Source: Polyangiaceae bacterium
Lineage (GTDB): Bacteria; Myxococcota_A; Polyangia; Polyangiales; Polyangiaceae
Length of the DNA: 64,000 nucleotides
Reading direction: 5' to 3'
NCBI GenBank assembly: GCA_036501935.1
Contig: DASXZL010000050.1
Location: forward strand, 6,620 to 70,619
Below, piece by piece: positions 973 to 43,537 of this stretch (positions are counted from its first letter, which is position 1; each line of letters starts with the position of its first letter). A program made the translations under genes and the position numbers. The notes beneath the pieces are model-generated. The model worked only from the letters and a program-made list of their open reading frames with translations, did no database searches and was not told where the DNA came from.

Positions 973-3558
973 ATGAACCGCGATCCGCTCTCGATCCGCG
1001 CATGGTTCGCCTTTGCCGTGCTGACCGTCTCCGCCTCGGGCTGCCGCGCGCCGGCACCCGCCGCTCGGGCGCCGCTGGCCACGCCCGCGCCTCCCGCGGC
1101 CGTCGTGGCCACGCCGAAGCCACCGGCCTTCGCGGCGAGAGAGGTCTTCCCGCACCACGTGACGGCCCACTGGCTGCAGGACCACGCCCACTTCTTCTAC
1201 CGGAACGAGCAGCCCGACGGCGTGCGTGAGTACCTCCTCGTCGACGCGACGACCGGCGAACGCACTCCCCTCTTCGATCAGACGCGCCTCGCAGCCGCGC
1301 TGAGCCAGGCGAGCGGGAAGGAAGTGAAGCCGGACCACCTGGCCCTCCACCGGCTCGAGCTCGACGAGAAGCGAACGACGATGATCTTCTCCGCGGCCGA
1401 GAAACGCTGGCGCTGCGATCTGCAGACGTACGCCCTCCAGCGGGAGACCGAAAAGCGCGAGGTCGACTCCCTTCGCCTCGCCGCCGAGCCGACCACGCGA
1501 ACCGGTCCGGCGACCGAGCTCACGTTCGTGAACGACTCACGCGGCGCTGTCGCCGTGTACTGGATGGACTTCGAGGGGCACCGCAAGCGCTACGCGACGC
1601 TCCCTCCGGGCAGCCGCCACACGCAACCGACGTACGCCGGCCACGTCTGGGTGCTGACCGACGCGGCGGACCGCGTGCTGATGGCGTTCGAGACGCCGGA
1701 GGACGGCGGCGAGTACGTCGTCGACCAGGAGGACACCCCGCTCGGCAACGTGCCCGTGGCGGTAAAGACTGCGGCGGCGGCGAAAGCCCCGCCGGTCATG
1801 GCCCCTGCCGACGAGCCGCGCGGGATCGCGTCCCCGGATGGCCACCGCCTCGCGTTCGTCAAGGACCACAACGTCTACCTTCGCGACGCACGCACCCGCA
1901 CGGCGGTGGCGCTGAGCCACGATGGCACCGCGGACGACTCGTACGCCGAGGGCGACCTCGCGTGGTCCCCCGATTCGACGCGGATCGTCGCGATGCGCAC
2001 GAAGAAGGGCGACACCCGCAAGGTCTACCTCGTCGAGTCGTCGCCCCACGACCAGCTCCAGCCCAAGCTCGACTCGTACGACTACCTCAAGCCGGGCGAC
2101 CGCATTCCGGTCCAGAAGCCGCATCTCTTCGACGTCACGGCGCGTGCGTCCATCCCGCTGAGCGACTCGCTGTATCCCCAGCCGTGGTCGATCTCGGAGG
2201 TCCGCTGGTCGAGCGACTCGAAGCATTTCAGCTTCCTCTACAACCAGCGCGGCCACCAGATGCTGCGTGTCGTATCGGTCGACGCGCGCAGCGGAGAGGC
2301 GCGCGCCATCGTCGACGAGCAGTCGAAGACGTTCATCGACTACAGCGGCAAGCTCCTCTACCGCCGGCTCGACGACACCCACGAGATCCTCTGGATGTCC
2401 GAGCGCGACGGGTACAACCACCTCTATCTCTACGACGCCGACACGGGCGCCGTGAAGAATCAGATCACGCGCGGCGAGTGGGTGGTGCGCAGCGTCGAGT
2501 CCGTCGACGAGAAGCAGCGCCAGATCTGGTTCTTTGCGGGCGGCGTTCGCCCGGGGCAAGACCCGTACTACCTCCACCTCTGCCGGGTGGGGTTCGACGG
2601 CACGGGGTTCACCGTGCTGACGGAGGGTGACGGGACGCACCTGGTCGAGCTCTCGCCCGATCGGCGCTTCTTCATCGACACCTGGTCGCGCGTCGACCAG
2701 CCTCCCGTGACGGAGCTCCGCCGCGCGAGCGACGGGAAGCTCGTCCGCGAGCTGGAGCGCGCCGACGACCGCCGCCTCCTCGAGACGGGCTGGACGATGC
2801 CCGAGCGGTTCGTCGCCAAGGGCCGCGACGGGCAGACGGACATCTACGGCATCCTGATCCGCCCTTCGAGCTTCGACCCGACGAAGACCTACCCCGTCAT
2901 CGAGGACATCTACGCCGGCCCCACGGGGGCCTTCGTGCCGAAGGCCTTCGGGCTCGAGGAGGACCAGCACGCGCTCGCCGACCGGGGCTTCATCGTCGTG
3001 CAGATCGACGGGATGGGCACGTCCTACCGATCGCGCGCGTTCCACGACGTCGCCTGGAAGAACCTCGCCGACTCGGGTTTTCCCGACCGCATCGCGTGGA
3101 TGAAGGCCGCCGCCGCGAAGCACCCCGAGATGGATCTCACGCGCGTCGGCATCTACGGCGGCTCGGCCGGCGGCCAGAGCGCCCTCCGAGCCCTCCTGTC
3201 TCACGGCGACTTCTACAAGGCTGCCGTCGCCGACTCCGGTTGCCACGACAACCGCATGGACAAGATCTGGTGGAACGAGCAGTGGATGGGCTGGCCGGTC
3301 GACGACAGCTACGTCAAGAGCTCGAACGTGGTGGACGCCCACAATCTGACGGGCAAGCTCCTCCTCATCGAGGGCGAGCTCGATCACAACGTGGACCCGT
3401 CCTCGACGATGCAGGTGGTCGACGCCCTCATCAAGGCCAACAAGGACTTCGAGCTGCTCGTCGTCCCGGGCGGCGGCCACGGCGTCGGGGACAGCCCGTA
3501 CGGGCGACGACGGCGTGCGGACTTCTTCGTCCGGAGCCTCATCGAGAGCAAGCCGTAG
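973..3558 (+). CDS. S9-family serine peptidase (dipeptidyl-peptidase IV-like), probable lipoprotein
   Basis: Track ORF 775..3558 trimmed to ATG 973, giving the signal/lipobox MNRDPLSIRAWFAFAVLTVSASGC. It has a long N-terminal propeller-like region. The C-terminal hydrolase carries the nucleophile elbow IYGGSAGGQ, then Asp (ELDHNVDP) and His (GGGHGV). Confidence 0.85.
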   Translation: MNRDPLSIRAWFAFAVLTVSASGCRAPAPAARAPLATPAPPAAVVATPKPPAFAAREVFPHHVTAHWLQDHAHFFYRNEQPDGVREYLLVDATTGERTPLFDQTRLAAALSQASGKEVKPDHLALHRLELDEKRTTMIFSAAEKRWRCDLQTYALQRETEKREVDSLRLAAEPTTRTGPATELTFVNDSRGAVAVYWMDFEGHRKRYATLPPGSRHTQPTYAGHVWVLTDAADRVLMAFETPEDGGEYVVDQEDTPLGNVPVAVKTAAAAKAPPVMAPADEPRGIASPDGHRLAFVKDHNVYLRDARTRTAVALSHDGTADDSYAEGDLAWSPDSTRIVAMRTKKGDTRKVYLVESSPHDQLQPKLDSYDYLKPGDRIPVQKPHLFDVTARASIPLSDSLYPQPWSISEVRWSSDSKHFSFLYNQRGHQMLRVVSVDARSGEARAIVDEQSKTFIDYSGKLLYRRLDDTHEILWMSERDGYNHLYLYDADTGAVKNQITRGEWVVRSVESVDEKQRQIWFFAGGVRPGQDPYYLHLCRVGFDGTGFTVLTEGDGTHLVELSPDRRFFIDTWSRVDQPPVTELRRASDGKLVRELERADDRRLLETGWTMPERFVAKGRDGQTDIYGILIRPSSFDPTKTYPVIEDIYAGPTGAFVPKAFGLEEDQHALADRGFIVVQIDGMGTSYRSRAFHDVAWKNLADSGFPDRIAWMKAAAAKHPEMDLTRVGIYGGSAGGQSALRALLSHGDFYKAAVADSGCHDNRMDKIWWNEQWMGWPVDDSYVKSSNVVDAHNLTGKLLLIEGELDHNVDPSSTMQVVDALIKANKDFELLVVPGGGHGVGDSPYGRRRRADFFVRSLIESKP

Positions 3559-3585
3559 CCGCGCCCCCTGATATCGTTGGGGCTC

Positions 3586-5403
3586 ATGGTGTCCCTTTCC
3601 GACGGCGAGCGCGTCGCGCTCGGCGAGTACGTCTCCGAGGCGCGGATGCTCGCCCGGGTCATCCGGCGCATCGTCCGCTATCGGCCGACCAGCAAGCACA
3701 ACGTCGCCGAGCTCCTCGAGGCCCGCGCGCTCGAGCATGGCCCGCGGACCGCGATCCTCTTCGGCGACGAGCGCTTCACGTACGACGACTGGAACGCGCG
3801 CGCCAACCGCGTCGCGCACTGGGGCCGCGAGCGGGGTCTTCGCCGGGGGGACGTCGTCGCCCTGCTGATGGAGAATCGCCCGGAGTTCCTCTTCGTGTGG
3901 ACGGGGCTCGCGAAGCTCGGCGTCGTGACCGCGCTCCTGAACACGAACCTCGGCGGGCGCGCGCTCGATCACGCTCTCGCGGCGGCGCGTCCCGTGCGCC
4001 TCGTCGTCGGCGCGGAGTGCCTACCGCAGCTGACGACGCTGTCGAAGGCGCCCCCCACGCACGTCCTGCGCGACCGCTCCGCCTACGAGCTGCCGCGGGG
4101 TGCGCACGATCTCGACGCCGCGCTCGCCGCTCGCCCTGCGAGCAATCCGGACGCGCGGTGGCGCAAAGGCCTCCAGGCGGGGGACGACGTCCTCTACATC
4201 TACACGTCCGGCACCACGGGCTCGCCGAAGGCCGCGCGCCTCAGCCATCTGCGCTTCCTGGCGATCGGCGACGTGCTTTCGGTGTTCGTCGACGGCGCCC
4301 CGGGGGACGTCCTCTACGACGTGCTGCCGCTCTACCACACGGCCGGCGGCGTCATGCTCCCGGCCCTGTCGCTCTTCTCCGCGGCGACGCTCGTCATCCG
4401 CCGCAAGTTCAGCGCAACCGGCTTCTGGGACGACGTTCGCCGGTATCGAGTGACGGGGTTCCAGTACATCGGAGAGCTCTGCCGATATCTGCTCGCGCAG
4501 CCGCCGAAGCCCGAGGACCGCCGGCACGGCCTCCGCTTCGCCGTAGGCAACGGCCTCCGGCCCGACGTGTGGCCGGCGTTTCGAGACCGGTTCGGCATTC
4601 CCCGCATCCACGAGTTCTACGGCGCGACCGAGGGCAACGTCGTGCTCATGAACCTCGACAACCGCGTGGGCGCGGTCGGTCGCGTGCTCATCAAACCGGT
4701 CAGCAACGCGCGCATCATCCGCTACGACGTCGACCGCGACGAGCACCCGCGCGACAAGAAGGGCTTCTGCGTCGAGGCCGCCCGCGGCGAGGTGGGCGAG
4801 ATGATCGGGCGCCTGCCGTTCACGAAGCGAATGGCCCTCGGGAGGTTCGAGGGATACACGTCCGGCGCCGACTCGGAGAAGAAGGTCCTCCACGGCGTCT
4901 TCCGGAAGGGGGACGCCTGGTTTCGCACCGGGGATCTCATGCGCCAGGATGCGCGCGGGTATTTCTATTTCGTCGATCGCATCGGCGATACGTATCGCTG
5001 GAAGGGCGAGAACGTCTCCACGCAAGAAGTGGCGGAGCTTCTCGCACCGTTCCCGGGCGTGCAGATGGCGAACGTCTACGGGGCGCGCGTCGAGGGGGCG
5101 GACGGCCGCGCCGGGATGGTCGCGCTCCTCCTGCACGAGGGGGCGAGCTTCGACGGAAAGAGCTTTTACGCGTTCGTGACCGAGCGTCTCCCGCGTTACG
5201 CCTCTCCGGCGTTCGTTCGGCTTCAACCCGAGGCCGACCTCACGGGGACCTTCAAGCTGCGCAAGGTGGACCTGCAGAAGCAGGGGTTCGATCCGGACCT
5301 CGTGCCCGAGCCGCTCTTCGCGCGGGATGACGCCGCCAGGGCCTACGTCCCCCTCACCCGCGAAATCCACGAGGCCATCCGTGGCGGAAAGTGGGCGCTC
5401 TGA
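3586..5403 (+). CDS. FATP-type / very-long-chain acyl-CoA synthetase (AMP-binding superfamily)
   Basis: Carries the AMP-binding motif YIYTSGTTGSPKAA. The block FYFVDRIGDTYRWKGENVST is typical of fatty-acid-transport-protein-type ligases. ATG 3586 lies in frame within track ORF 3577..5403. Confidence 0.85.
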   Translation: MVSLSDGERVALGEYVSEARMLARVIRRIVRYRPTSKHNVAELLEARALEHGPRTAILFGDERFTYDDWNARANRVAHWGRERGLRRGDVVALLMENRPEFLFVWTGLAKLGVVTALLNTNLGGRALDHALAAARPVRLVVGAECLPQLTTLSKAPPTHVLRDRSAYELPRGAHDLDAALAARPASNPDARWRKGLQAGDDVLYIYTSGTTGSPKAARLSHLRFLAIGDVLSVFVDGAPGDVLYDVLPLYHTAGGVMLPALSLFSAATLVIRRKFSATGFWDDVRRYRVTGFQYIGELCRYLLAQPPKPEDRRHGLRFAVGNGLRPDVWPAFRDRFGIPRIHEFYGATEGNVVLMNLDNRVGAVGRVLIKPVSNARIIRYDVDRDEHPRDKKGFCVEAARGEVGEMIGRLPFTKRMALGRFEGYTSGADSEKKVLHGVFRKGDAWFRTGDLMRQDARGYFYFVDRIGDTYRWKGENVSTQEVAELLAPFPGVQMANVYGARVEGADGRAGMVALLLHEGASFDGKSFYAFVTERLPRYASPAFVRLQPEADLTGTFKLRKVDLQKQGFDPDLVPEPLFARDDAARAYVPLTREIHEAIRGGKWAL

Positions 5404-35614: not shown

Positions 35615-36205
35615 ATGACCACGAGCACGTGGAGAGAGGCTGCGAGCGCGGCCATGGACAGGTACGCCTGCGGCGACGACGCGGCGTTCTCGGAGCTATA
35701 CGACCTTCTGGCTCCGCGCCTGGCGTCGTTTCTCGTTCGGCGGACCCGCGATCCGGCGCTCGCCGGCGATCTCGTCCAGCAGACCTTCTTGCAGATGCAC
35801 TCGTCCCGCCGGCACTTCGCCGAGGGGGCCGACGTCATGCCCTGGGCGTTCGCGATCGCGCGACGCCTGCTCATCGACGTCTTCCGCAAGAGCGGGCGCG
35901 AGATCATGGCCGACGACGACGAGGGGGGCGAGGGGCGCGAGAGCGTCGCGCCCGAGCCCTCGCCGGACCAGCTCGTGTCGCGACGACGTCTCGTCGATCG
36001 GATCGGGCAGGAGCTCGAGCGGATCCCCGAGGCGCAGCGCGCGGCCTTCGAGCTCGTCAAGCGCGATGGGCTCTCGCTCGCCGAGGCCGCCGAGGTGCTC
36101 GGCACGACGGTCGCCGCCGTGAAGCTGCGGGTGCACCGGACGTATGAGGTTTTGCGTGCGCGTCTCGGCGACGAGCTGCGCGAGGAGCTGGACGGGACGT
36201 GGTGA
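35615..36205 (+). CDS. ECF-type RNA polymerase sigma-70 factor (pair 1)
   Basis: Region 2 (LVQQTFLQMH, PWAFAIARRLLIDVFRK) and region 4 HTH (LSLAEAAEVLGTTVAAVKLRVHR). Confidence 0.85.
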   Translation: MTTSTWREAASAAMDRYACGDDAAFSELYDLLAPRLASFLVRRTRDPALAGDLVQQTFLQMHSSRRHFAEGADVMPWAFAIARRLLIDVFRKSGREIMADDDEGGEGRESVAPEPSPDQLVSRRRLVDRIGQELERIPEAQRAAFELVKRDGLSLAEAAEVLGTTVAAVKLRVHRTYEVLRARLGDELREELDGTW

Positions 36206-36232
36206 GCGACGGGCCATCCCGAGGAGGTAGTC

Positions 36233-36898
36233 GTGAACGGATTGGACGAAGCGGGCTCGATTCTCGCGCAGAAGGCGCGTGTCATGGCGGCTGCTGCCGC
36301 GACACCCTCGCCCACGCGCCGACAAGCGCGCAGGGTCACGTATCTCATCGTCGCGCTCTCGGTCATCGTGGGTCTTACGCTGTTCGAGCTCGCCGGGGGG
36401 CTCGCCCACGCGCGCGACCGACCGCTGGCCCTCACGGTGCGCCTGGCCGATGGCTGGGCTCTGGCGTCGGCCGTCCTCACGTGGCTGGTGGTCCGGCGCG
36501 CGACACCCCTCGTGCGCGACGGCGACGTGCTCGCGCTGCTGCTCGTCGCCGCCCCGCTGGTCCTGCTGGGCTGGATGGCGCGGTTCCATCTGGCCTACGT
36601 CGATGCGCCGCCTGTCGCCGACTGGCCTTGCTTCGTCGGAGCACTCACCGCGGCGGCGGCTCCCCTGGCGGGTCTGTCGTGGGCACGACGGAAGGCCGAG
36701 CCGAGGCGCCCGGGCATGCTCGGGGCCGCCATCGGCGCTTCGTGCGGAGCATGGGCCGGCGTGCTCGCCCTGCTCTGGTGTCCTCACACGGGCCTCGAGC
36801 ACGCCCTCGCCGGTCACGTCGCGCCCCTCGTGGCGACGACGGTGCTCGGGGCCATCACCGGGGTCCGCGTGCTGCGAATGCGACGAGGCTCTCCGTGA
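36233..36898 (+). CDS. NrsF-like (DUF1109) polytopic anti-sigma factor (pair 1)
   Basis: Sits directly downstream of the ECF sigma gene. About six hydrophobic segments. Conserved Cys-containing segment GASCGAWAGVLALLWCPHTGLEH, shared with the paralog at 36904..37572. Confidence 0.6.
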   Translation: MNGLDEAGSILAQKARVMAAAAATPSPTRRQARRVTYLIVALSVIVGLTLFELAGGLAHARDRPLALTVRLADGWALASAVLTWLVVRRATPLVRDGDVLALLLVAAPLVLLGWMARFHLAYVDAPPVADWPCFVGALTAAAAPLAGLSWARRKAEPRRPGMLGAAIGASCGAWAGVLALLWCPHTGLEHALAGHVAPLVATTVLGAITGVRVLRMRRGSP

Positions 36899-36903
36899 TC
36901 GGC

Positions 36904-37572
36904 TCACGGCCGGCGGCGCCCGCTCATCTTCAAGATGCGGGCTCCGAGCACCGCGCCGAGCGCCGCGAGCACGCCGATGGGAAGGATGTGCCCGAGGGCC
37001 ACGTGCGCGGGGGTGGCGACGGGGCACCACAGCTCCACCATGATGCCGGCCGACGCTCCGCACGCGGAGCCGAGGGCCGCTCCGGTGACGGCAGGGTGCA
37101 CCGGATCGCTCTCGCGCCGCGCGTAGAGGAGCGCCACGAGCGGGAGGACGGCCGCCGCCAGCGTGAGTCCGAAGCACTTGAGCCCGAGCCGCTCGGGGTG
37201 CAGCGCGGTGACCTCGGGGTCGATGATCGCGAACGCGAACATGAGCGCGAACAGCAGCCCCGGTGTGCCTGCGGCCACGGCCAACAACGTCGACCGCGAT
37301 CGCCAGCTGCGCGATCGAGCGCGGCCGAGCGCGCCCCACATGGAGGTCGCCGCCACGGCCGTCCAGCTCGCGGCGCAGGCCACGTAAAACCAGACCGGGC
37401 GCCCCCCGCCGTGGTCGAGGCCGTTCATCGTGAAGTACAGCGCGCCGGCGACGATGATGCCCGAAGGGAGAACGAGCCACGCCCAGGCCCGCGCCGTCTG
37501 CCGCGTGGTGGACGGCGTGCGGCGCATCGCCTCGAGCAGGCGTGCCTTGGGATCGGAGGGCAGCTCGCTCAT
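36904..37572 (-). CDS. NrsF-like (DUF1109) polytopic anti-sigma factor (pair 2)
   Basis: ATG 37572 (MSELPSDPKARLLEAM) within track ORF 36904..38598. It overlaps the sigma gene stop as ATGA. Paralogous segment GSACGASAGIMVELWCPVATPAH. Confidence 0.6.
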   Translation of the reverse strand: MSELPSDPKARLLEAMRRTPSTTRQTARAWAWLVLPSGIIVAGALYFTMNGLDHGGGRPVWFYVACAASWTAVAATSMWGALGRARSRSWRSRSTLLAVAAGTPGLLFALMFAFAIIDPEVTALHPERLGLKCFGLTLAAAVLPLVALLYARRESDPVHPAVTGAALGSACGASAGIMVELWCPVATPAHVALGHILPIGVLAALGAVLGARILKMSGRRRP

Positions 37573-38132
37573 GGAAGGTCTCCCAGCGCTTCGTGCACTT
37601 CGTCGCCCAGCAGCTCGCGCAGCGCCACGTAGGTCCTGTGCGCCCGGAGCTTCACCGCCGGTACGGTCGTCCCCAGCACCTCCGCCGCCTCGGCCATCGA
37701 CAACCCATCGAGTTGCACGAGCGCGAACGCTTCGCGGTGCTGCTCGGGGAGCTGCTGCAGGGCCTCGAGGATGCGGTCGCCGACACGCCGGAGGGACACC
37801 AGCGCGTCGACGCCCGGTGAGCTGGGCCGCTCCGCCTCGTGGGGCGCGTGGCACTTGCGATGGTCGTCGATGAGCATGCGGCGCGTGATCGCGAAGGCCC
37901 AGGGGGTCACCTGGGCGCCGCGGGCGAAGTGCCTTCGATTCAGGTGCATGCGCAGGAACGTCTCGTGAACGAGCTCCTCCGACCGCGCGTGATCGCGGGT
38001 GCGGCGGAGCAGGAAGGCCAGCAGGCGCGGTGCCAGGAGCGTGTACACCTCCGCGAACGCGGCTTCGTCGCCGCCCTCGGCGTACCTGTCCATGGCCGCA
38101 TCGGCCGCCGGCTTCCACGTGTCGTCGCGCAT
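37569..38132 (-). CDS. ECF-type RNA polymerase sigma-70 factor (pair 2)
   Basis: Close paralog of 35615..36205. Compare AADAAMDRYAEGGDEAAFAEVYTLLAPRL with ASAAMDRYACGDDAAFSELYDLLAPRL. Region 4: LSMAEAAEVLGTTVPAVKLRAHR. Confidence 0.85.
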   Translation of the reverse strand: MRDDTWKPAADAAMDRYAEGGDEAAFAEVYTLLAPRLLAFLLRRTRDHARSEELVHETFLRMHLNRRHFARGAQVTPWAFAITRRMLIDDHRKCHAPHEAERPSSPGVDALVSLRRVGDRILEALQQLPEQHREAFALVQLDGLSMAEAAEVLGTTVPAVKLRAHRTYVALRELLGDEVHEALGDLP

Positions 38133-38314: not shown

Positions 38315-39055
38315 ATGAAGCGCTTCTTCGTGGTGTGTGTCACGTGCGCGTTGCCGGCGTGCAGCAGCAGCAGCGGCGGGGAGACGCCGGGCGGCGGACA
38401 GGACGCCGGCGGCCACGACGCGACCGGCGACGTCTCGGTGGCCCCGGACGGGTCTGTGGCGGTCGACGCGAGCCCCGAGGCGGGCGTCGACGCGAGCCTG
38501 GAGGCGGGCGCCGACGCGTCCGTCGAGAGCGGCACGGGGGACGCGGCGGAAGATGCGTCGGACGGAGGCTGCCCCGCGAGCTGGCTGGTCGCGCCCACCG
38601 TCGATCCCTCGATCGCCGTGCCGGCCGACGGGGGGAGCGTGCTGCTCCACGCGTCCGGCAGCGGAACGCAGAACTACACGTGCACGGCGGGCACCGACGG
38701 CGGCGCATCGTGGGTGCTGACGGGCCCCAGCGCCAATCTGAACGACTGCACCGGGACCCTCGTCGGCCACCACTTCGCGAGCGACGGCGGCGCGGCTTTT
38801 CCCGAGTGGCAGACGCTCGACGGGACGTACGTGGTCGGACACAAGCTCGCTCCGTTCACTCCGGACGGCGGCTCCGGATCGGTTCCGTGGCTGTTGCTCC
38901 AGGGGGTCGACCACGGAGGAACCGGCACGCTGAGCGAGGTGGCGTACGTCCAGCGGCTGTTCACCGACGGCGGCAACGCGCCCGCATCGGCCTGCGACGC
39001 GGGCGACACCGTGGAGGTTCCGTACGGGGCCAGTTACTACTTCTACGGGCCCTGA
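38315..39055 (+). CDS. DUF3455-like secreted lipoprotein
   Basis: Lipobox VTCALPAC and an Asp/Ala/Gly-rich linker. The core then has GTQNYTC, WVLTGPSANL, GHHF, PWLLL and the C-terminal YYFYGP, as I recall for DUF3455. Confidence 0.6.
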   Translation: MKRFFVVCVTCALPACSSSSGGETPGGGQDAGGHDATGDVSVAPDGSVAVDASPEAGVDASLEAGADASVESGTGDAAEDASDGGCPASWLVAPTVDPSIAVPADGGSVLLHASGSGTQNYTCTAGTDGGASWVLTGPSANLNDCTGTLVGHHFASDGGAAFPEWQTLDGTYVVGHKLAPFTPDGGSGSVPWLLLQGVDHGGTGTLSEVAYVQRLFTDGGNAPASACDAGDTVEVPYGASYYFYGP

Positions 39056-39229: not shown

Positions 39230-40363
39230 ATGCGCGCCTTTGCCCTCCTCGCGCTGGCGGCGCTCGCGGCGACTGGCTGCGGCAACTCCAGTCGTGCGTC
39301 CGGCTCCCCCGAAGGCGGGGCCGCCGACGCGTCGGGCGACGTCGAGCCCGGCGACGCGTCCGCCTGCGCGCCCGACGGCGAGGGCCTCGACGCGGGGTCC
39401 TACCCCGTCCCCACGCCCGCCTCGATCCAGTTCGCGGCGAAGGCGGCGCTCCCGAGCGGCGAGCAGCTCCTCTTCAACGACTGGAACCCGTCGCCCAACA
39501 CGGTGAGCTCCCTCACGCCCGACGGCGCGACGAAGACACCGGTGTTCGCCGTCTACCGCGCCTGGAGCATGGGCGTCTCGCACGACGCGAAGAGCATCGC
39601 CTTCTCGTGCGGCGATCCGGACCAGCAGGCCGACTTCGGCCTCCAGATCGGCGACTCGATCCAGCAGACGTGGATCTACGACGTCGCCTCGCAGGCCATC
39701 CACCTCGTCGCCCACGGGAACATCAACGACGAGTGCCACACCTTCGGCCCGGGCGACACGGCCCTCTGGGTCTGCCGCCGGTACGACTTCGCGGAGACGG
39801 GCGACGCCAGCGACCTCACGGGGACGAACAAAGGCTACCGCATCGGATGGATCGAGCTGGCGACGGGCGCGTTCTCGTTTCTGACGCCGGACGACTCGGC
39901 CTCGTCGACGTACGCGCTCTACCCGCAGCCGACGGCGGACGGCCGGAGCGTCTACTACTCCACGACGCAGGACGTCAGCGCGACCCAGACCAGGAGCACC
40001 GTCCTCGACGCGCCCCTCTGCGGCGGCGCGACCGCGAACATCCGCGACGCGGCGGGCGAGCCCGTCCTCTCGCCCGACGGAACGAGATACGTCTACGCGG
40101 ACGAAACGCAGACGGGCGCGCTCCACGCGAGCACCCTCGACGGCAAGACGGACGTCACGATCACCACCGCGGCAGGTACGAACGCCGTGTGGTCGCCCGA
40201 CGGGACGAAGGTCGCCTACCTCGTCTACGACGGCGCCGCGGGCTGCCAGCACATCGACGTCGTGAAGAGCGACGGCAGCAGCGCGGCCACCCCGACGCGC
40301 CTGAGGGACTGCAGCAAGACCGGCGAGTTCATCACCGAGCTAGCCTGGTTCGTGAACCCCTAG
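39230..40363 (+). CDS. TolB-like / WD40-like beta-propeller lipoprotein
   Basis: Lipobox LAATGC. Repeated PD40-like strands are present (VLSPDGTRYVYAD, AVWSPDGTKVAYLVY, SLTPDGATK). Confidence 0.6.
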   Translation: MRAFALLALAALAATGCGNSSRASGSPEGGAADASGDVEPGDASACAPDGEGLDAGSYPVPTPASIQFAAKAALPSGEQLLFNDWNPSPNTVSSLTPDGATKTPVFAVYRAWSMGVSHDAKSIAFSCGDPDQQADFGLQIGDSIQQTWIYDVASQAIHLVAHGNINDECHTFGPGDTALWVCRRYDFAETGDASDLTGTNKGYRIGWIELATGAFSFLTPDDSASSTYALYPQPTADGRSVYYSTTQDVSATQTRSTVLDAPLCGGATANIRDAAGEPVLSPDGTRYVYADETQTGALHASTLDGKTDVTITTAAGTNAVWSPDGTKVAYLVYDGAAGCQHIDVVKSDGSSAATPTRLRDCSKTGEFITELAWFVNP

Positions 40364-40496
40364 TACGTCGCCGCAGAGGTTCTGACGGGATCGTCTTCGT
40401 CGGCGCCGCGGTTTCCGGCGGAAACGTGCAGCGATACAGCTGGTTACGGGGTGCGCTCGGGGAGGAAAGAACACCGGCGCGACGCTTCGACCTGCG

Positions 40497-41252
40497 AATG
40501 CGTCGTCTTGTCGACCGAATGCGTCATCTTGTCTTCGAGGCGGCGCATCGTCTCGACTGAATGCGCGATCTTGTCTTCGAGGAATCGCATCTCGTCGACG
40601 GGATGGCGCGACTTGAAGACGAGACGACGCATCTTGAAGACAGGAAGGCGCTTCTTGTCGACAAGCTGCGCTACTCGGTCGACAAGGCGTGTCACGCTGA
40701 AGACGAGACGGGGCATCTTGTCTTGGCGATGCGTCGTCTCGAGACCAAGAAGCCGCTTCCGACGACTCGGGAGCGTCATCGTCTCGACAAGACGCCGCAT
40801 CTCGTCGAGCCGATGCGTCTTCTTGTCTTCGCGATGCGTCGCCCTGAAGACAAGGTGACGCATCTCGAGAACAAGACGACGCATCGTGAGTTGTCGCCGC
40901 GTCTCCCGTCCACTCGGGAGCCGCTTTTGCTCTTCAAGACGACGCACTCGGTCTTCAAGACGACGCACTTGCTCTTCAAGACGACGCGTTCGTCGAACGA
41001 GGAGCCGCTCTTCCTCGACAAGACGGCGGTTTCACTGAGCAAATTGGCGCTCTTGCTCGAAACAACGGCTCCTTCGTCGACCCGCGAGCCGCACCCGGTT
41101 CGACGAATGCGGCGCGGAGAGGTGAACGAGCATCGGCGAGAACGGCCGGACACGCATTTCGTCGTCCCGCGTGACCACGATGAGGATCCGATGCTCCATC
41201 GCGTCGATGCGCGTGGGCGCCTCGTCTTCATCACGAGCGCCTCGTGAGACTT
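40497..41252. repeat. Phase-locked array of degenerate 21-bp repeats (at least 28 clear units, up to about 36), consensus about GAYGNCGCATCTTGTCGACAA
   Basis: I segmented the region by hand into consecutive 21-mers and needed no indel. The core occurs in both orientations (ATGCGTCGTCTTGTC and GACAAGACGACGCAT). A perfect palindrome CTTGTCGACAAG sits at 40655-40666. Three near-identical units lie at 40938-41000. G+C is lower than in the flanks. Confidence 0.85.
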
Positions 41253-41383
41253 CGCGCGGCCCATGGCAATCTCGTTCGTGCGCGTGGGAGCCTCGGGCAA
41301 ACGATCGAAACCTCCGTGGCGAGGTCCTAAATCGCCGAGCGTGATTGTCGGGTCAAACGCCACCCGATGCCGCGCCAGCGGCA

Positions 41384-41486
41384 TCAGCACCGCGAGCGTG
41401 AGCGAGCGGTGAGCGACTAAGCTCGCGGCGCGGAGTGCCGTGTGCCAGCGACGCGGCTCACCGCTCGCTCACGCTCGCGGTGCTGA
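41384..41486. repeat. 31-bp perfect inverted repeat (stem) separated by a 41-nt loop
   Basis: The arm at 41384-41414, tcagcaccgcgagcgtgagcgagcggtgagc, is the exact reverse complement of 41456-41486, gctcaccgctcgctcacgctcgcggtgctga. It lies about 95-195 nt downstream of the stop of the minus-strand gene ending at 41579. Confidence 0.9.
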
Positions 41487-41578
41487 CGGCGGCTACGCCG
41501 CCCGTGCGAGACCCATCGAGAATCGCGCTCGCTAGCGCTCGCTCATTTAGATGCCCCAGCGGCGCCCCTCCGCGCGCG

Positions 41579-43537
41579 TCAGAACGCGTACACGATGTCG
41601 AGCCCCTGCGTCGACAAGCTGGCCACGGGCTTCGCCCCCTTCTCGAACGCGAGCGACATCCCGACCCCCGTCCCGATGGCGATCGGCGCCTTCCACGGCG
41701 CATACCGGAGGGCCCACATGGGCGTGAAGATGACCATGGTCATCGGGTAGTTCGGCGACAGCGAGCCGATGAAGTTGAGCTCGGGCCCCATCGCGAACGG
41801 CGCGACATCGTGCACGAAGTAGATGACGTCGAGGAAGAGATCCGACCCGATGCGGTTGTTGGTCGCCCCCTTGATGCCGGTGAGGGGCGAGGTCGGCGTG
41901 CCGTTGCCGTCGTACGTGAAACCGAGACCCACGGTCGTCGCGAGGTGGTCCACCGGGAAGTACCCGAGGAGCGCCGCCGGCGTCGTGCTGACGGCGGCGC
42001 CCGTGTAGAAGGCGCCCTGCGGCCCGAGGATGGCGGGCTTCGTCGACGAGGGCTTGGGCGTCGTCTTCTCACCGGCGGGCGGCGTGTCGGCCGAGGGCAC
42101 GTCGTCGTCCTGCGCGCGCGCCGGGCTGGAGAAGAGCAGCGTGAAGACGCCCGCGAAGAGCGCCGCCGCCGTCAGGGCCTTCGCCCGAGCCCTCCTTCTG
42201 CGGAGACTCGCCCCGATCCCGAGCGCCACGAGCGCGAGCACCGGCGTCGCCGCGCCCGCGTCTCCCGGGACCATGCTGCACCCCGGCATCGTCGGAGCCA
42301 CTGCGGGACCCGCGTCCGGCGCGTCCCCGGTCCCTCCGCCGCCTGAGCCCGAGGCCGCGGCCGTGCCCACGGTGCCGCCGTCCGCGGAGACGGCGCCGCT
42401 GCTGCTGCCGCCAGCGCCGCCGCTGCTGCTGCTGCTACTTCCGCCGCTGCCGCCGGACGACGTGCTTCCACCGGATCCGCCGCTGCTCGAGCCACCGCTC
42501 GAACCGCTGCTCGAGCCGCCGCCGGGCGAGGGCGCGAGACCGAAGAAGCTCGCGACGTAGGCCACGGCGCAGGTCTTCTCGTCGACGAAGTACGTGCTGG
42601 CCGTGCCGCACCCGCTCGCCGTATCGATGGCCACCGCGTGGCTCATGCCCGTGATGGAATACGACTCGACCTGCACGACGCCGCTTCCGTCCGCGTACTC
42701 GTCGTGCGGAAAGCCGTTCACCGTGCCGGACGTCGTCGCCGTCGCGCTCGCGCCGGTGAGGTTCGCCCACTGCTGCACGATCTCGCCGAGGTTCGCCGTG
42801 TTCACGGTGGTGTCGGCCGAGCCTTGCCACACCGAGAGACGCGGGTACGGGCCCGCGTACCCGGGAAAGCCCTTCTTCGCGAGCGCGCCCCACTGCGCCG
42901 GCGTGTTCGTCGTCGCCCCGTCCATGCACGTGTACGCGCTCGAGAGCGTCGTCGCGCACCCGAAGGGGACGCCCGAGAACGAGGCCCCGGCGGCGAAGAC
43001 GTCGGGGTACATCGCGAGCAGCGCCACGGCGTAGGCGGCGCCGGCGGAGAAGCCCGTGACGAAGACGCGCTTCGCGTCGACCGAGTAGGTCGACTTCATG
43101 TAGGTGACCATCTGCGCGACGGACTCCGCCTCACCCTGCCCGCGCGTGATGTCCGCCGTGCTGCCCGACGTGTTGCCGAACCAGTTGAAGCAGCTCTCGA
43201 TGTTGTTCGACGATTGCTGCTGCGGATAGACGACGTAGAACTTGTACGTGTCGGCGAGCGCGTCCCAGCCGGCCGCCTCGTAGTCGGCCGCCGTCTGGGT
43301 GCACCCGTGGAGCGCGAGCACGACGGGCGCGTTCGCGGGCACGCCCGACGGCACGTACGTGTACATGAGGAGGCTGCCCGGGTTCGAGCCGAAGCTCGTG
43401 ACGGCCTGCAGCGTGCTGACGGCCTGGGCGGTGCTGTCGACGATCTCCGCGCCGGGACCGCCGGCCGCGCAGGAGGCGACCGAGAGCGCGAGCCCGGCGA
43501 GGACGAGTGGACGAAGGACGAACGGACGGGGATTCAT
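41579..43537 (-). CDS. PHB-depolymerase-family esterase with Gly/Ser linker and MYXO-CTERM-like tail, continuing in frame into a second signal peptide and an outer-membrane beta-barrel-like domain
   Basis: Single uninterrupted 652-aa track ORF. Signal/lipobox LALSVASC. Esterase blocks LALHGCTQTA and VTGFSAGAA (GxSxG). An (S/G)n linker leads to PGCSMVPGDAGAATPVLALVALGIGASLRRRRA. Then KALTAAALFAGVFTLLFSSPARA-QDDD follows. A beta-strand-rich region ends the ORF in …LDIVYAF. Confidence 0.7.
   Translation of the reverse strand: MNPRPFVLRPLVLAGLALSVASCAAGGPGAEIVDSTAQAVSTLQAVTSFGSNPGSLLMYTYVPSGVPANAPVVLALHGCTQTAADYEAAGWDALADTYKFYVVYPQQQSSNNIESCFNWFGNTSGSTADITRGQGEAESVAQMVTYMKSTYSVDAKRVFVTGFSAGAAYAVALLAMYPDVFAAGASFSGVPFGCATTLSSAYTCMDGATTNTPAQWGALAKKGFPGYAGPYPRLSVWQGSADTTVNTANLGEIVQQWANLTGASATATTSGTVNGFPHDEYADGSGVVQVESYSITGMSHAVAIDTASGCGTASTYFVDEKTCAVAYVASFFGLAPSPGGGSSSGSSGGSSSGGSGGSTSSGGSGGSSSSSSGGAGGSSSGAVSADGGTVGTAAASGSGGGGTGDAPDAGPAVAPTMPGCSMVPGDAGAATPVLALVALGIGASLRRRRARAKALTAAALFAGVFTLLFSSPARAQDDDVPSADTPPAGEKTTPKPSSTKPAILGPQGAFYTGAAVSTTPAALLGYFPVDHLATTVGLGFTYDGNGTPTSPLTGIKGATNNRIGSDLFLDVIYFVHDVAPFAMGPELNFIGSLSPNYPMTMVIFTPMWALRYAPWKAPIAIGTGVGMSLAFEKGAKPVASLSTQGLDIVYAF

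Follow-up and report, generated by a model that had tools for sequence, protein, structure and literature searches.

The closest described counterparts of the locus reported here are the BOX elements of S. pneumoniae and S. suis, which are composite repeats with the arrangement boxA-(boxB)n-boxC (Croucher et al. 2011, PMC3049150). These elements are modular, vary in length and possess terminal inverted repeats and target-site duplications (TIRs and TSDs) as well as open reading frames (ORFs) on both strands, and the largest pneumococcal representative measures 637 bp (PMC3049150). AT richness and strong base pairing characterise MITEs as a group (PMC3049150). Each REP is a separate hairpin with a stem of 5-13 bp in which pairing is maintained; linkers lie between REPs, which bear GTAG or CGTC tags (PMC3733652). 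Iterons, type II ParR/parC and omega-type centromeres have in common with our locus a short repeat spaced at integral helical turns and present as direct and inverted copies. In the heptad arrays bound by omega, for example, repeats occur in both direct and inverted orientation. The MIRU-type VNTRs of mycobacteria are dispersed intergenic minisatellites with a variable number of units, whose unit length keeps reading frames open.

We analysed a stretch of 64,000 nucleotides from a Polyangiaceae bacterium (hereafter the window), in which a preliminary description had singled out an array of 21-bp repeats as either a DNA-binding array or a heptad-repeat gene. The best reading of our data is a new, lineage-restricted composite repeat of the MITE/BOX-like kind. 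The array is probably the middle module of this non-coding, BOX/MITE-like interspersed repeat of ~969 bp. The array itself consists of two segments:

40497-41084, no strand assigned: 28 well-preserved 21-bp units without an indel, delimited by stacking, autocorrelation and weight matrix.
41085-41210, no strand assigned: six decayed units in phase with the first 28, delimited by weight matrix.

Autocorrelation over positions 40497-41252 peaks at lags of 21, 42, 63 and 84 (0.47, 0.48, 0.44 and 0.47, respectively), with neighbouring lags at ~0.2-0.3 and no sign of a 7-bp sub-period (0.21 at lag 7 and 0.23 at lag 14). The match at lag 21 is 0.482 across 714 nt versus 0.337 +/- 0.023 (maximum 0.405) in 1235 other windows of equal length (z = 6.4), which bears out the period first proposed. 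When trained solely on units 1-28, a weight matrix places all of these units in phase 0 and also finds 41106, 41148 and 41190, which score above the 99th to 99.9th percentile and are all in phase 0, and the next match, at 41216, is shifted by 5. The complete array therefore comprises 34 consecutive in-phase units (40497-41210) with zero phase-breaking indels. The original estimate of at least 28 indel-free units to 41084 holds, whereas its end at about 41250 has to be moved to 41210. Mean pairwise identity among units of the 28-unit segment is 0.47, and units are linked by at least 160 substitutions in that segment and at least 211 across all 34, with no out-of-phase indels. Because the units are only ~47% alike, TRF reports the array as fragments. 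The lowered GC content noted previously is also real: it is 0.585 in 40497-41084 versus 0.716 in the whole window, with 60-nt lines at 0.53-0.63, and no other 1.2 kb of the window is as low in GC as the array region. A CRISPR array was ruled out, as spacers are absent.

The computed unit consensus, GACGCCGCATCTTGTCGACAA, agrees with the one that had been derived by hand. It is a 21-bp near-palindrome with one dyad at position 6 and a second between positions 16 and 17. These two axes are 10.5 bp apart as read from the consensus, and therefore lie on one helix face, in keeping with the two-helical-turn geometry of the preliminary description. The most informative positions are G1, G4, C8 and C11, arranged symmetrically around position 6, and G14 and C19 form a symmetric pair across the 16/17 axis. 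Single units are poor palindromes, and Watson-Crick pairs occur at the independent-arm expectation at every one of the 10+10 positions, with no compensation found within units. Two features stand out:

40654-40665, no strand assigned: the sole perfect copy of the 12-bp palindrome CTTGTCGACAAG, located by sequence check (previously placed at 40655-40666).
40811-40886, no strand assigned: the longest internal hairpin, formed by adjacent units in opposite orientation, with two 36-nt arms that are 83% complementary and a 4-nt loop.

The core had also been described as occurring in both orientations. The sequence ATGCGTCGTCTTGTC is indeed present, once, but its exact reverse complement is absent, the nearest relative being a 14/15 match at ~40869.

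The array forms the core of a repeat element at 40361-41329 with the order arm, (21-bp unit)n, arm, in which the following parts flank the units:

40361-40496, plus strand: left arm, unique and without 21-bp periodicity, containing a small hairpin (GTTTCC-GGC-GGAAAC).
41211-41329, plus strand: right arm, unique, conserved to 41312 in copy L009, to 41286 in L007 and to 41224 in L008.
40361-40381, plus strand: left terminal inverted repeat TAGTACGTCGCCGCAGAGGTT, found by aligning it locally to the reverse-complemented right end.
41309-41329, minus strand: right terminal inverted repeat, with the reverse complement TAGGACCTCGCCACGGAGGTT, found by alignment of the ends and pattern scan.

The left arm is kept in L012 (from 40362) and in L011 (from 40419) although their outer flanks differ, with a mismatch rate across copies of 0.062, and the right arm is conserved at the protein level in P0002/P0135 through ...KPPWRG, at ~41325. 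The terminal inverted repeat is imperfect, with 17/21 matches and a score of 13 in the local alignment of the one full-length DNA copy, and 1.5% of random pairs of 41-43-nt segments score as high (empirical p ~0.015). With zero mismatches allowed, its pattern is confined to the two element ends within the 64 kb. The terminal repeat coincides with boundaries that were set independently by copy comparison (L012 and P0002/P0135); homology with L012 begins at 40362, and homology with L015, an ortholog of the upstream PD40-like gene, ends at 40363. The first three bases of TAGTACGTCGCCGCAGAGGTT are the TAG stop of that PD40-like gene. Taking G as the first base of the terminal repeat leaves the window copy with TA on either side, and the left junction of L012 is CA. 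Three partial copies lose homology short of the predicted termini (L011 at 40419, L007 at 41286 and L008 at 41224). The window copy measures 969 bp, the short copy VGL81_20555 ~570 bp, and the arms without the array ~255 bp.

Array and arms occur at six or more loci, those on other contigs having 85-93% identity and unrelated flanking genes. The array is not a single locus, and the family is multi-copy. The window organism is the MAG VGL81, as the PD40 protein beside the element is 100% identical to VGL81_18860. ORF calls of the family (VGL81_20555, _23945, _37300, _08620 and _25330) lie on five further contigs of this MAG, which gives six contigs in total, and a second MAG carries a more diverged copy (VGM06_17945). 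Five copies with unrelated flanks are represented as DNA, at 85-92% identity: L007 (tRNA-Gln, ferredoxin, FTHFS), L008 and L009 (E1 dehydrogenase) contain the right arm and the right part of the array, and L011 and L012 contain the left arm and the left part. The window copy is the only full-length DNA copy, and the copy number so far is ~6-10. In every copy examined the element is intergenic, in all copies the flanks are unrelated right up to the arms, and orientation relative to the neighbouring genes varies. The order of units is the same between copies; P0135, for example, matches the window order over 235 residues with one extra unit. The four differences in length are all whole multiples of 21 bp (L007, -21; L012, +21; P0135, +7 aa; VGL81_20555, -399 bp or 19 units), and the copies contain 34, 33, 35, 35 and 15 units. 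PD40 orthologs with 78-87% identity (L013-L016) have no element after the stop codon; their downstream genes differ too, and there is therefore no clean empty site among them. Profile searches with the ORF alignment yielded nothing in GTDB representative genomes or a JGI metagenome subset, and exact-pattern scans with conserved pieces of the right and left arms yielded nothing in GTDB representatives, the JGI subset or IMG/VR, the source samples evidently lying outside these collections. A search for the DNA behind P0002 and P0008 likewise yielded none.

The window copy lies between genes for the PD40-like protein and a PHB-depolymerase-type esterase. The window is ordinary chromosome and carries only chromosomal housekeeping genes, among them those for peptidases, inositol-phosphate synthase, helicases, formyltransferase, Hsp70/DnaJ and ECF sigma factors. 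Within its 64 kb, genes of the rep, par, transposase or phage kind were not found, and this holds also for a RAYT (IS200/IS605-like) transposase and for any transposase with matching ends. The likeness to iterons or parC-type centromeres drawn earlier, and to plasmid or phage centromeres of the parC/parS type in general, is not supported, given at least six chromosomal loci with unrelated neighbours, the lack of rep or par genes nearby and the lack of any match in plasmid and phage collections (blastn, distant mode). Whereas those systems sit at one place beside rep or par genes and have 4-20 repeats, this family is dispersed and has 15-35 units per copy.

The architecture is most like that of BOX elements, and is also that of MITEs with a minisatellite inside them. 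Both consist of two unique arms with partial inverted complementarity around tandem short modules whose number varies by locus, both have many intergenic copies and strong predicted folding, and both have ORFs on the two strands because module length is a multiple of 3. Both also count as MITE-like and lack a transposase of their own. This likeness is one of architecture only; Rfam, plasmid and phage searches gave nothing, and homology to boxA, boxB or boxC is unlikely in view of the GC-rich Myxococcota host. There are also differences. The BOX module is 45 bp with near-identical units, whereas ours is 21 bp with up to 34-35 units at 47% identity, and here the unit itself is a palindrome present in both orientations. 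BOX elements measure 67-637 bp and have ~100 copies in a Firmicute, whereas this element measures ~970 bp and has ~6-10 copies so far in a Polyangiaceae lineage with 72% GC.

With MITEs (e.g. the IS630-related Correia, RUP and Nezha) the element shares a lack of coding capacity, AT enrichment relative to the host, terminal inverted repeats (17/21 here), strong secondary structure and multiple intergenic insertions, here at unrelated sites in one genome; the succession of arm, variable tandem modules and arm is the BOX-type trait. However, MITEs are usually well under 1 kb, about half the size of this 969-bp element, which unlike them is mostly minisatellite in length. REP/BIME clusters and NIMEs resemble the array in their clustered extragenic palindromic units in both orientations, often between convergent genes. 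Here, by contrast, units are contiguous, strictly 21 bp long and enclosed by conserved unique arms, and assignment to REP/BIME was rejected because stem pairing is not maintained within units. MIRU-type VNTRs have in common with the family their dispersal between genes, varying unit number and open frames, but their units are direct repeats of 40-100 bp without conserved unique arms or inverted termini.

A plausible history is that a transposase acting in trans, which would recognise the ~21-bp imperfect terminal inverted repeats with their GTACGTCGCCGCAGAGGTT-like ends, has copied whole elements to further positions between genes. The target may be a TA dinucleotide; the TA at both window junctions would fit the targets of IS630/Tc1-type elements. 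In the window, the PD40-like gene would have been hit in its stop codon. Once inserted, the array could gain or lose units via slippage or unequal recombination, and its palindromic unit and mixed orientations would create very stable hairpins in single-stranded forms, be it a transcript or replicating or transposing DNA.

A purely selfish element does not explain why at least 160-211 unit substitutions have accumulated with zero phase-breaking indels, nor does it explain the symmetric, position-specific conservation seen both in the array and between copies. Variation between copies is lowest at the positions of G1/G4/C8/C11 and G14/C19 (0.00-0.11) versus 0.25-0.39 at positions 3, 5, 7 and 9 (chi-square p = 0.03 for position heterogeneity; Spearman rho = -0.40, p = 0.07). 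To judge from the sequence, the retention of phase at 47% unit identity together with symmetric conserved positions hints at selection on the DNA itself. The array might accordingly be read as a candidate platform for a dimeric protein that would bind GAYG-N3-CRTC (positions 1-11) or the palindrome CTTGNNNNCAAG every two helical turns, with 15-35 dimers on one face of the DNA. We consider this doubtful, though with a modest chance of being correct, and it would be compatible with spread as a mobile repeat followed by co-option. Perfect phase across 34 units and the symmetry of the least variable positions speak for such binding, as does the finding that palindrome deviations are uncompensated within units, which half-site recognition predicts and selection for hairpins does not. 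Against it, neither the copies nor the sequences beside them encode a candidate binding protein, flanks are unrelated, rep and par genes are absent, and single units make poor palindromes. In addition, a range of 15-35 units per copy implies that no fixed array size is needed, the statistics are weak, and mutation bias could give part of the pattern, since positions 3 and 9 are hypervariable with changes of CpG/TpG type. A more specific proposal, which we regard as rather improbable, is that the arrays, rather than being junk, are putative docking sites for a dimeric DNA-binding protein that forms polymers along one helix face, with one GAYG-N3-CRTC per 21 bp and 15-35 of these per locus at six or more loci. 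If true, perfect phase and symmetric conserved positions would be the footprint of this protein, and the system would be a sequence-specific chromosome-organising, silencing or transposase-titrating one, of a kind undescribed for Myxococcota.

The family might also have dispersed without transposition, by segmental duplication or recombination-mediated copying of an old intergenic minisatellite whose inverted termini are coincidental. The merely moderate significance of the terminal repeat, the variation of boundaries among copies, and a search that found neither a transposase nor a confirmed target duplication would all fit such a history. Its probability is nonetheless low, because the flanks of all copies are unrelated up to the arms, the inverted repeat matches the two longest boundaries in position, the element always lies between genes, and close relatives have no element at the PD40 locus.

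Equally improbable is that the element is a structured RNA module, transcribed for example as part of the 3' UTR of the upstream gene, with hairpins that serve as terminator, stabiliser or protein sponge. BOX, ERIC and Correia elements have had roles of these kinds proposed for them. Both strands are predicted to form very stable folds (z-scores of -6.8, -4.9 and -6.6), the hairpin at 40811-40886 is present in the minimum-free-energy fold of 40791-41084, and for 40497-40790 the plus strand folds 20 kcal/mol better than the minus strand. Moreover, the element begins inside the stop of a gene on the plus strand, and no terminator intervenes. However, an Rfam 15 search (E <= 1) returned only miRNA hairpin models, the best at 28-33 bits versus thresholds of 67-100, and complementary pairs within units are not in excess over independent arms. 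RNAalifold on four copies gave an unfavourable covariation term (+1.81), with 2 of 103 pairs compensatory and many broken. A scan for promoters and terminators found nothing above chance, and the orientation of the element to its neighbours is inconstant among copies.

The composite-repeat reading also accounts for the long ORFs on both strands, which arise because the unit is stop-poor and seven codons long. Two of these are:

40561-41247, plus strand: 228-aa ORF called by gene finders in the source contig, without a Pfam match.
40444-40968, minus strand: 174-aa ORF with a similar pseudo-heptad, with only a weak, sub-threshold Pfam match of coiled-coil type.

The former is a by-product of the unit and not a gene, and the latter is the mirror by-product of its palindromic nature. 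The observation that four of the six frames are mostly open was a fair one, as stop counts in the array are 5, 1 and 2 on the plus strand and 4, 3 and 1 on the minus strand. Relative to column-permuted arrays, stop depletion was not found in the called frames; three other frames exhibit mild depletion (P = 0.01-0.05) because positions are correlated in oppositely oriented units. GC3 of the array frames is at most 0.72 versus 0.94-0.96 in flanking genes, and GC by codon position in the 228-aa ORF is 0.64, 0.40 and 0.72. Between copies, pN/pS is 0.87-1.24 over all six frames of array and tail (0.94 and 1.05, respectively, for the 228-aa ORF), minus-strand frames, including that of the 174-aa ORF, span the same 0.87-1.24, and substitutions by codon position number 53, 91 and 69, without third-position bias. 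The best-conserved unit positions (1, 4, 10 and 19) are third positions in the called frame. An in-frame TGA, which lies at 40558-40560 rather than at 40557 as first placed, is shared by the window and L012 and missing from L011, and the stop at 41245 is absent from P0135, whose ORF fuses to an adjoining lipoprotein gene. Gene callers choose differing strands for differing copies. Pfam returned nothing meaningful for any of the four ORFs, and phmmer against 1.84 billion representatives gave five matches, of which four are fragments of the same element family and the remaining one (P0012) is a protein of eukaryote type, unrelated to the family, whose heptads read GRL[IV]DEQ (a GRLIDEQ repeat). 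All arguments of the preliminary description against ordinary coding thus hold, and the per-frame codon and substitution analyses agree with them. A real gene of foreign origin for a coiled-coil-like protein with the heptad xxHLVDK, for which one could cite the ORF calls in several assemblies, the seven-codon period and the absence of frameshifting indels within the array and between copies, is strongly disfavoured by these data and highly improbable.

Several points of practical use follow. What is annotated as a 228-aa 'hypothetical protein' is an annotation artefact, as are its relatives (e.g. VGL81_23945, _20555, _37300, _08620 and _25330), one of which has been falsely fused to a lipoprotein gene. 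In the literature searched on myxobacteria we found no description of BOX-like composite repeats, and the element would extend this class of repeats to a GC-rich Myxococcota lineage. Most metagenome contigs of the family end inside the array; the element interrupts the assembly of this Polyangiaceae lineage from metagenomes, and the number of units provides a VNTR marker ready for use.

The array lies in the 1.2-kb gap separating two convergent genes, and it forms the core of a larger element with a distinct arm on each side. The features concerned are as follows.

39230-40363, plus strand, PD40/beta-propeller-like gene upstream of the array
40361-41329, the element, composed of left arm (40361-40496), array and right arm (41211-41329)
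40811-40886, hairpin with 36-nt arms
41579-43537, minus strand, PHB-depolymerase-type esterase gene downstream of the array

The 21-bp periodicity proposed in the preliminary description is real. Autocorrelation over 40497-41252 gives sharp peaks of 0.44-0.48 at lags 21, 42, 63 and 84, versus approximately 0.2-0.3 at adjacent lags. Identity at lag 21 is 0.482 across the array (714 nt), compared with 0.337 +/- 0.023 (maximum 0.405) in 1235 equally long windows elsewhere (z = 6.4). When cut from 40497, the sequence yields 28 units with zero indels. A weight matrix trained on these 28 units scores all of them in phase 0, and further phase-0 matches occur at 41106, 41148 and 41190 before phase is lost at 41216. 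We therefore define the array as 34 units spanning 40497-41210. The 28 clean units described previously are thus retained, whereas the weaker continuation ends at 41210 instead of about 41250; the earlier coordinates also contain minor slips. The computed consensus, GACGCCGCATCTTGTCGACAA, agrees with the one derived by hand, and the lowered GC content was also recovered, as the array (0.585, versus 0.716 for the window) is the lowest-GC stretch in the 64 kb.

The main new result is that the array is part of a dispersed element. The window itself derives from JGI metagenome contig Ga0376652_0000350. Searching at protein level with the two called ORFs brought up a small number of relatives, and the contigs that carry them have the same array next to unrelated adjoining genes. 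Partial DNA copies on other metagenome contigs are arranged as follows.

L007, right part of the array and right arm, then tRNA-Gln, ferredoxin and FTHFS genes
L008, right part, with other genes adjoining
L009, right part, then an E1 dehydrogenase gene
L011 and L012, left arm and left part, in two further gene contexts

These copies are 85-92% identical to the window, and homology stops at the arm ends. Most contigs, including several orthologous ones, end inside the array, as contigs usually do at multi-copy repeats when assembled from short reads. The PD40 protein beside the window copy is 100% identical to VGL81_18860 from an NCBI Polyangiaceae MAG, and the same MAG carries family ORFs on five additional contigs, 7 to 720 kb in length (VGL81_20555, _23945, _37300, _08620 and _25330). 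The element is therefore multi-copy, with at least six loci in one genome. A more diverged copy, VGM06_17945, is present in a second MAG. Outside the lineage, searches of Rfam, plasmids, phages, GTDB representatives, a JGI subset and IMG/VR gave no match. Only five protein matches were recovered among 1.84 billion representatives, four of them fragments of this element family.

The left boundary falls at 40362, where homology to L012 begins; homology to L015, a locus with the PD40 ortholog that lacks the element, ends at 40363. On the right, conservation extends furthest to about 41325, as shown by the protein records P0002/P0135 over one element copy, which match up to ...KPPWRG; in L009 it reaches 41312. 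Homology is lost earlier in L011 (40419), L007 (41286) and L008 (41224), and these copies may be truncated. The element ends are inverted repeats: TAGTACGTCGCCGCAGAGGTT and the reverse complement TAGGACCTCGCCACGGAGGTT agree in 17 of 21 bases, a score that 1.5% of random window pairs reach. At zero mismatches, the window has no further occurrence of the terminal motif. Taking G as the first base of the repeat proper, TA is present at both window junctions, the one complete junction pair, and CA is present at the L012 junction. With this start, insertion would have changed the stop codon of the PD40 gene from TAA to TAG. Two tRNA-like neighbours were also seen: in L007, some 90 nt separate the truncated right arm from a tRNA-Gln(TTG) gene (518-589) encoded on the other strand, and a tRNA-like sequence is located downstream in L015. 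This proximity may reflect coincidence or an insertion hot spot.

On the best-supported reading, the element is a composite interspersed repeat that is non-coding, carries terminal inverted repeats and is organized as arm, (21-bp unit)n, arm. What appeared to be an enigmatic single array is probably the central module of a new MITE/BOX-like repeat family restricted to this lineage. Among described elements, its nearest analogue is the BOX element of pneumococci, boxA-(boxB)n-boxC, which is modular and MITE-like, varies in module number, and has terminal inverted repeats, ORFs on both strands and strong folding (PMC3049150). All of these characteristics are shared by the element. The analogy is architectural, and sequence homology between the two is unlikely. 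The element differs in its shorter, palindromic unit, its many more and much more diverged units, and its GC-rich host.

Every length difference among copies is a whole number of units: 21 bp fewer in L007, 21 bp more in L012, seven more residues in P0135, and exactly 399 bp (19 units) fewer in the short copy VGL81_20555. Unit order is identical across copies, and so the array was already degenerate when the element spread. Small indels (1, 1, 1 and 3 nt) are found only in the arms, although this contrast with the array is suggestive at most because homopolymer runs are about 2.4 times more frequent in the arms. A minimum spanning tree of 28 units requires 160 substitutions and one of all 34 units 211, yet the array has not a single phase-breaking indel. 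The probability of observing no indel is 0.04 down to 6e-9 at assumed indel-to-substitution ratios of 0.02-0.09. Variability between copies depends on unit position (chi-square p = 0.03), being lowest at positions 1, 4, 8, 11, 16, 19 and 21 and highest at 3, 5, 7 and 9.

The unit consensus is a near-perfect 21-bp palindrome. One dyad is centred on position 6 (pairs G1/C11, A2/T10 and G4/C8) and the other lies 10.5 bp away, between positions 16 and 17 inside CTTGTC|GACAAG; G1, G4, C8, C11 and C19 carry the most information. Asymmetry is confined to the consensus centre (ATGCGTCGT versus ACGACGCAT), which is found either way round and accounts for the core reported earlier in both orientations. 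Single units are poor palindromes, and within-unit Watson-Crick pairs match the number expected from independent arms for each of the 20 symmetric pairs of positions. Symmetry thus belongs to the consensus and is not upheld by compensatory change. Within the array as well as between copies, variation is greatest at positions 3 and 9 (e.g. 40499 and 40505, repeating at 21-bp steps), which are the Y of YG and R of CR beside invariant G4 and C8. Their CpG-to-TpG/CpA pattern on both strands fits deamination of methylated cytosine in GACG/CGTC.

A purely selfish element does not account for the indel-free 21-bp phase or for the position-dependent variability, in which the symmetric positions stay preserved. 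The most interesting residual possibility, judging from these sequence patterns, is that a protein might bind the array, which we regard as rather unlikely.

A protein-coding gene was rejected because it fails every test applied, and the non-coding nature of the array is confirmed, in keeping with the earlier case against ordinary coding. GC3 in the best frame is 0.72, versus 0.94-0.96 in flanking genes, and third positions of the called ORF (40561-41247, plus strand) include several of the most conserved nucleotides. Comparison of the window with five further copies gives pN/pS values of 0.87-1.24 for the array, whichever of the six frames is used, and of 0.70-1.05 for the tail; substitutions by codon position (53, 91 and 69) reveal no third-position bias. 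An in-frame TGA at 40558 is common to the window and L012 and missing from L011, whereas the stop at 41245 is absent from P0135, whose ORF continues into a lipoprotein gene. Gene callers pick the plus strand in some copies and the minus strand in others. No meaningful Pfam match was obtained for any of the four ORFs, and called frames showed no stop depletion relative to column-permuted arrays. The stopless ORF of VGL81_23945 (P0135/P0002) and the lipoprotein that follows it (signal peptide MLRLLLSGCFPCLLLASCSS...) are annotated as a single fused protein; the repeat is the cause of this annotation artefact. The sole non-family match to the pseudo-heptad translation in the representative protein search, P0012, is a eukaryote-type protein of 1148 aa that contains about 60 GRL[IV]DEQ heptads in tandem and has a C-terminus resembling talin/Sla2; its RLVD likeness is convergent.

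Both strands of the element fold far better than shuffled sequences (z = -6.8, -4.9 and -6.6), and four copies provide no covariation support (covariation term +1.81; compensatory pairs 2/103). A REP/BIME assignment was rejected because hairpin pairing is not maintained within units (PMC3733652). The suggested likeness to iterons or parC-type centromeres does not hold, as the 64-kb window has no rep, par, transposase or phage genes and the copies occupy dispersed loci.

By gene content, the window is ordinary chromosome, with genes for an S9 peptidase, an AMP-binding enzyme, inositol-1-phosphate synthase, a DEAD-box helicase, a 5'-nucleotidase, a large TPR protein, adenylate cyclase, two ECF sigma/NrsF pairs, an MFS transporter, methionyl-tRNA formyltransferase, Lhr helicase and Hsp70/DnaJ. 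The two adjacent ECF sigma factor/NrsF (DUF1109) anti-sigma pairs (35615-38132; 2425-4903 of locus L001) are arranged tail to tail, one per strand with NrsF genes abutting, and are followed by a DUF3455 gene (38315-39055). TRF repeats at 42394-42522 (periods 3, 6, 12 and 24) reside within the esterase gene and encode its Gly/Ser-rich linker (GGSSSGSSGGSSSGGSGGS...); this low-complexity sequence is coding and has no relation to the 21-bp array. Just past the esterase stop codon and outside the element, a very long, nearly perfect hairpin (41379-41491) has 36-nt arms that are 94% complementary, a 41-nt loop and a folded stem of about 32 bp (fold z = -7.3). Within the window, the 23-mer GCGAGCGTGAGCGAGCGGTGAGC occurs solely in its two arms, and this hairpin may act as a terminator or represent another type of palindromic insert.
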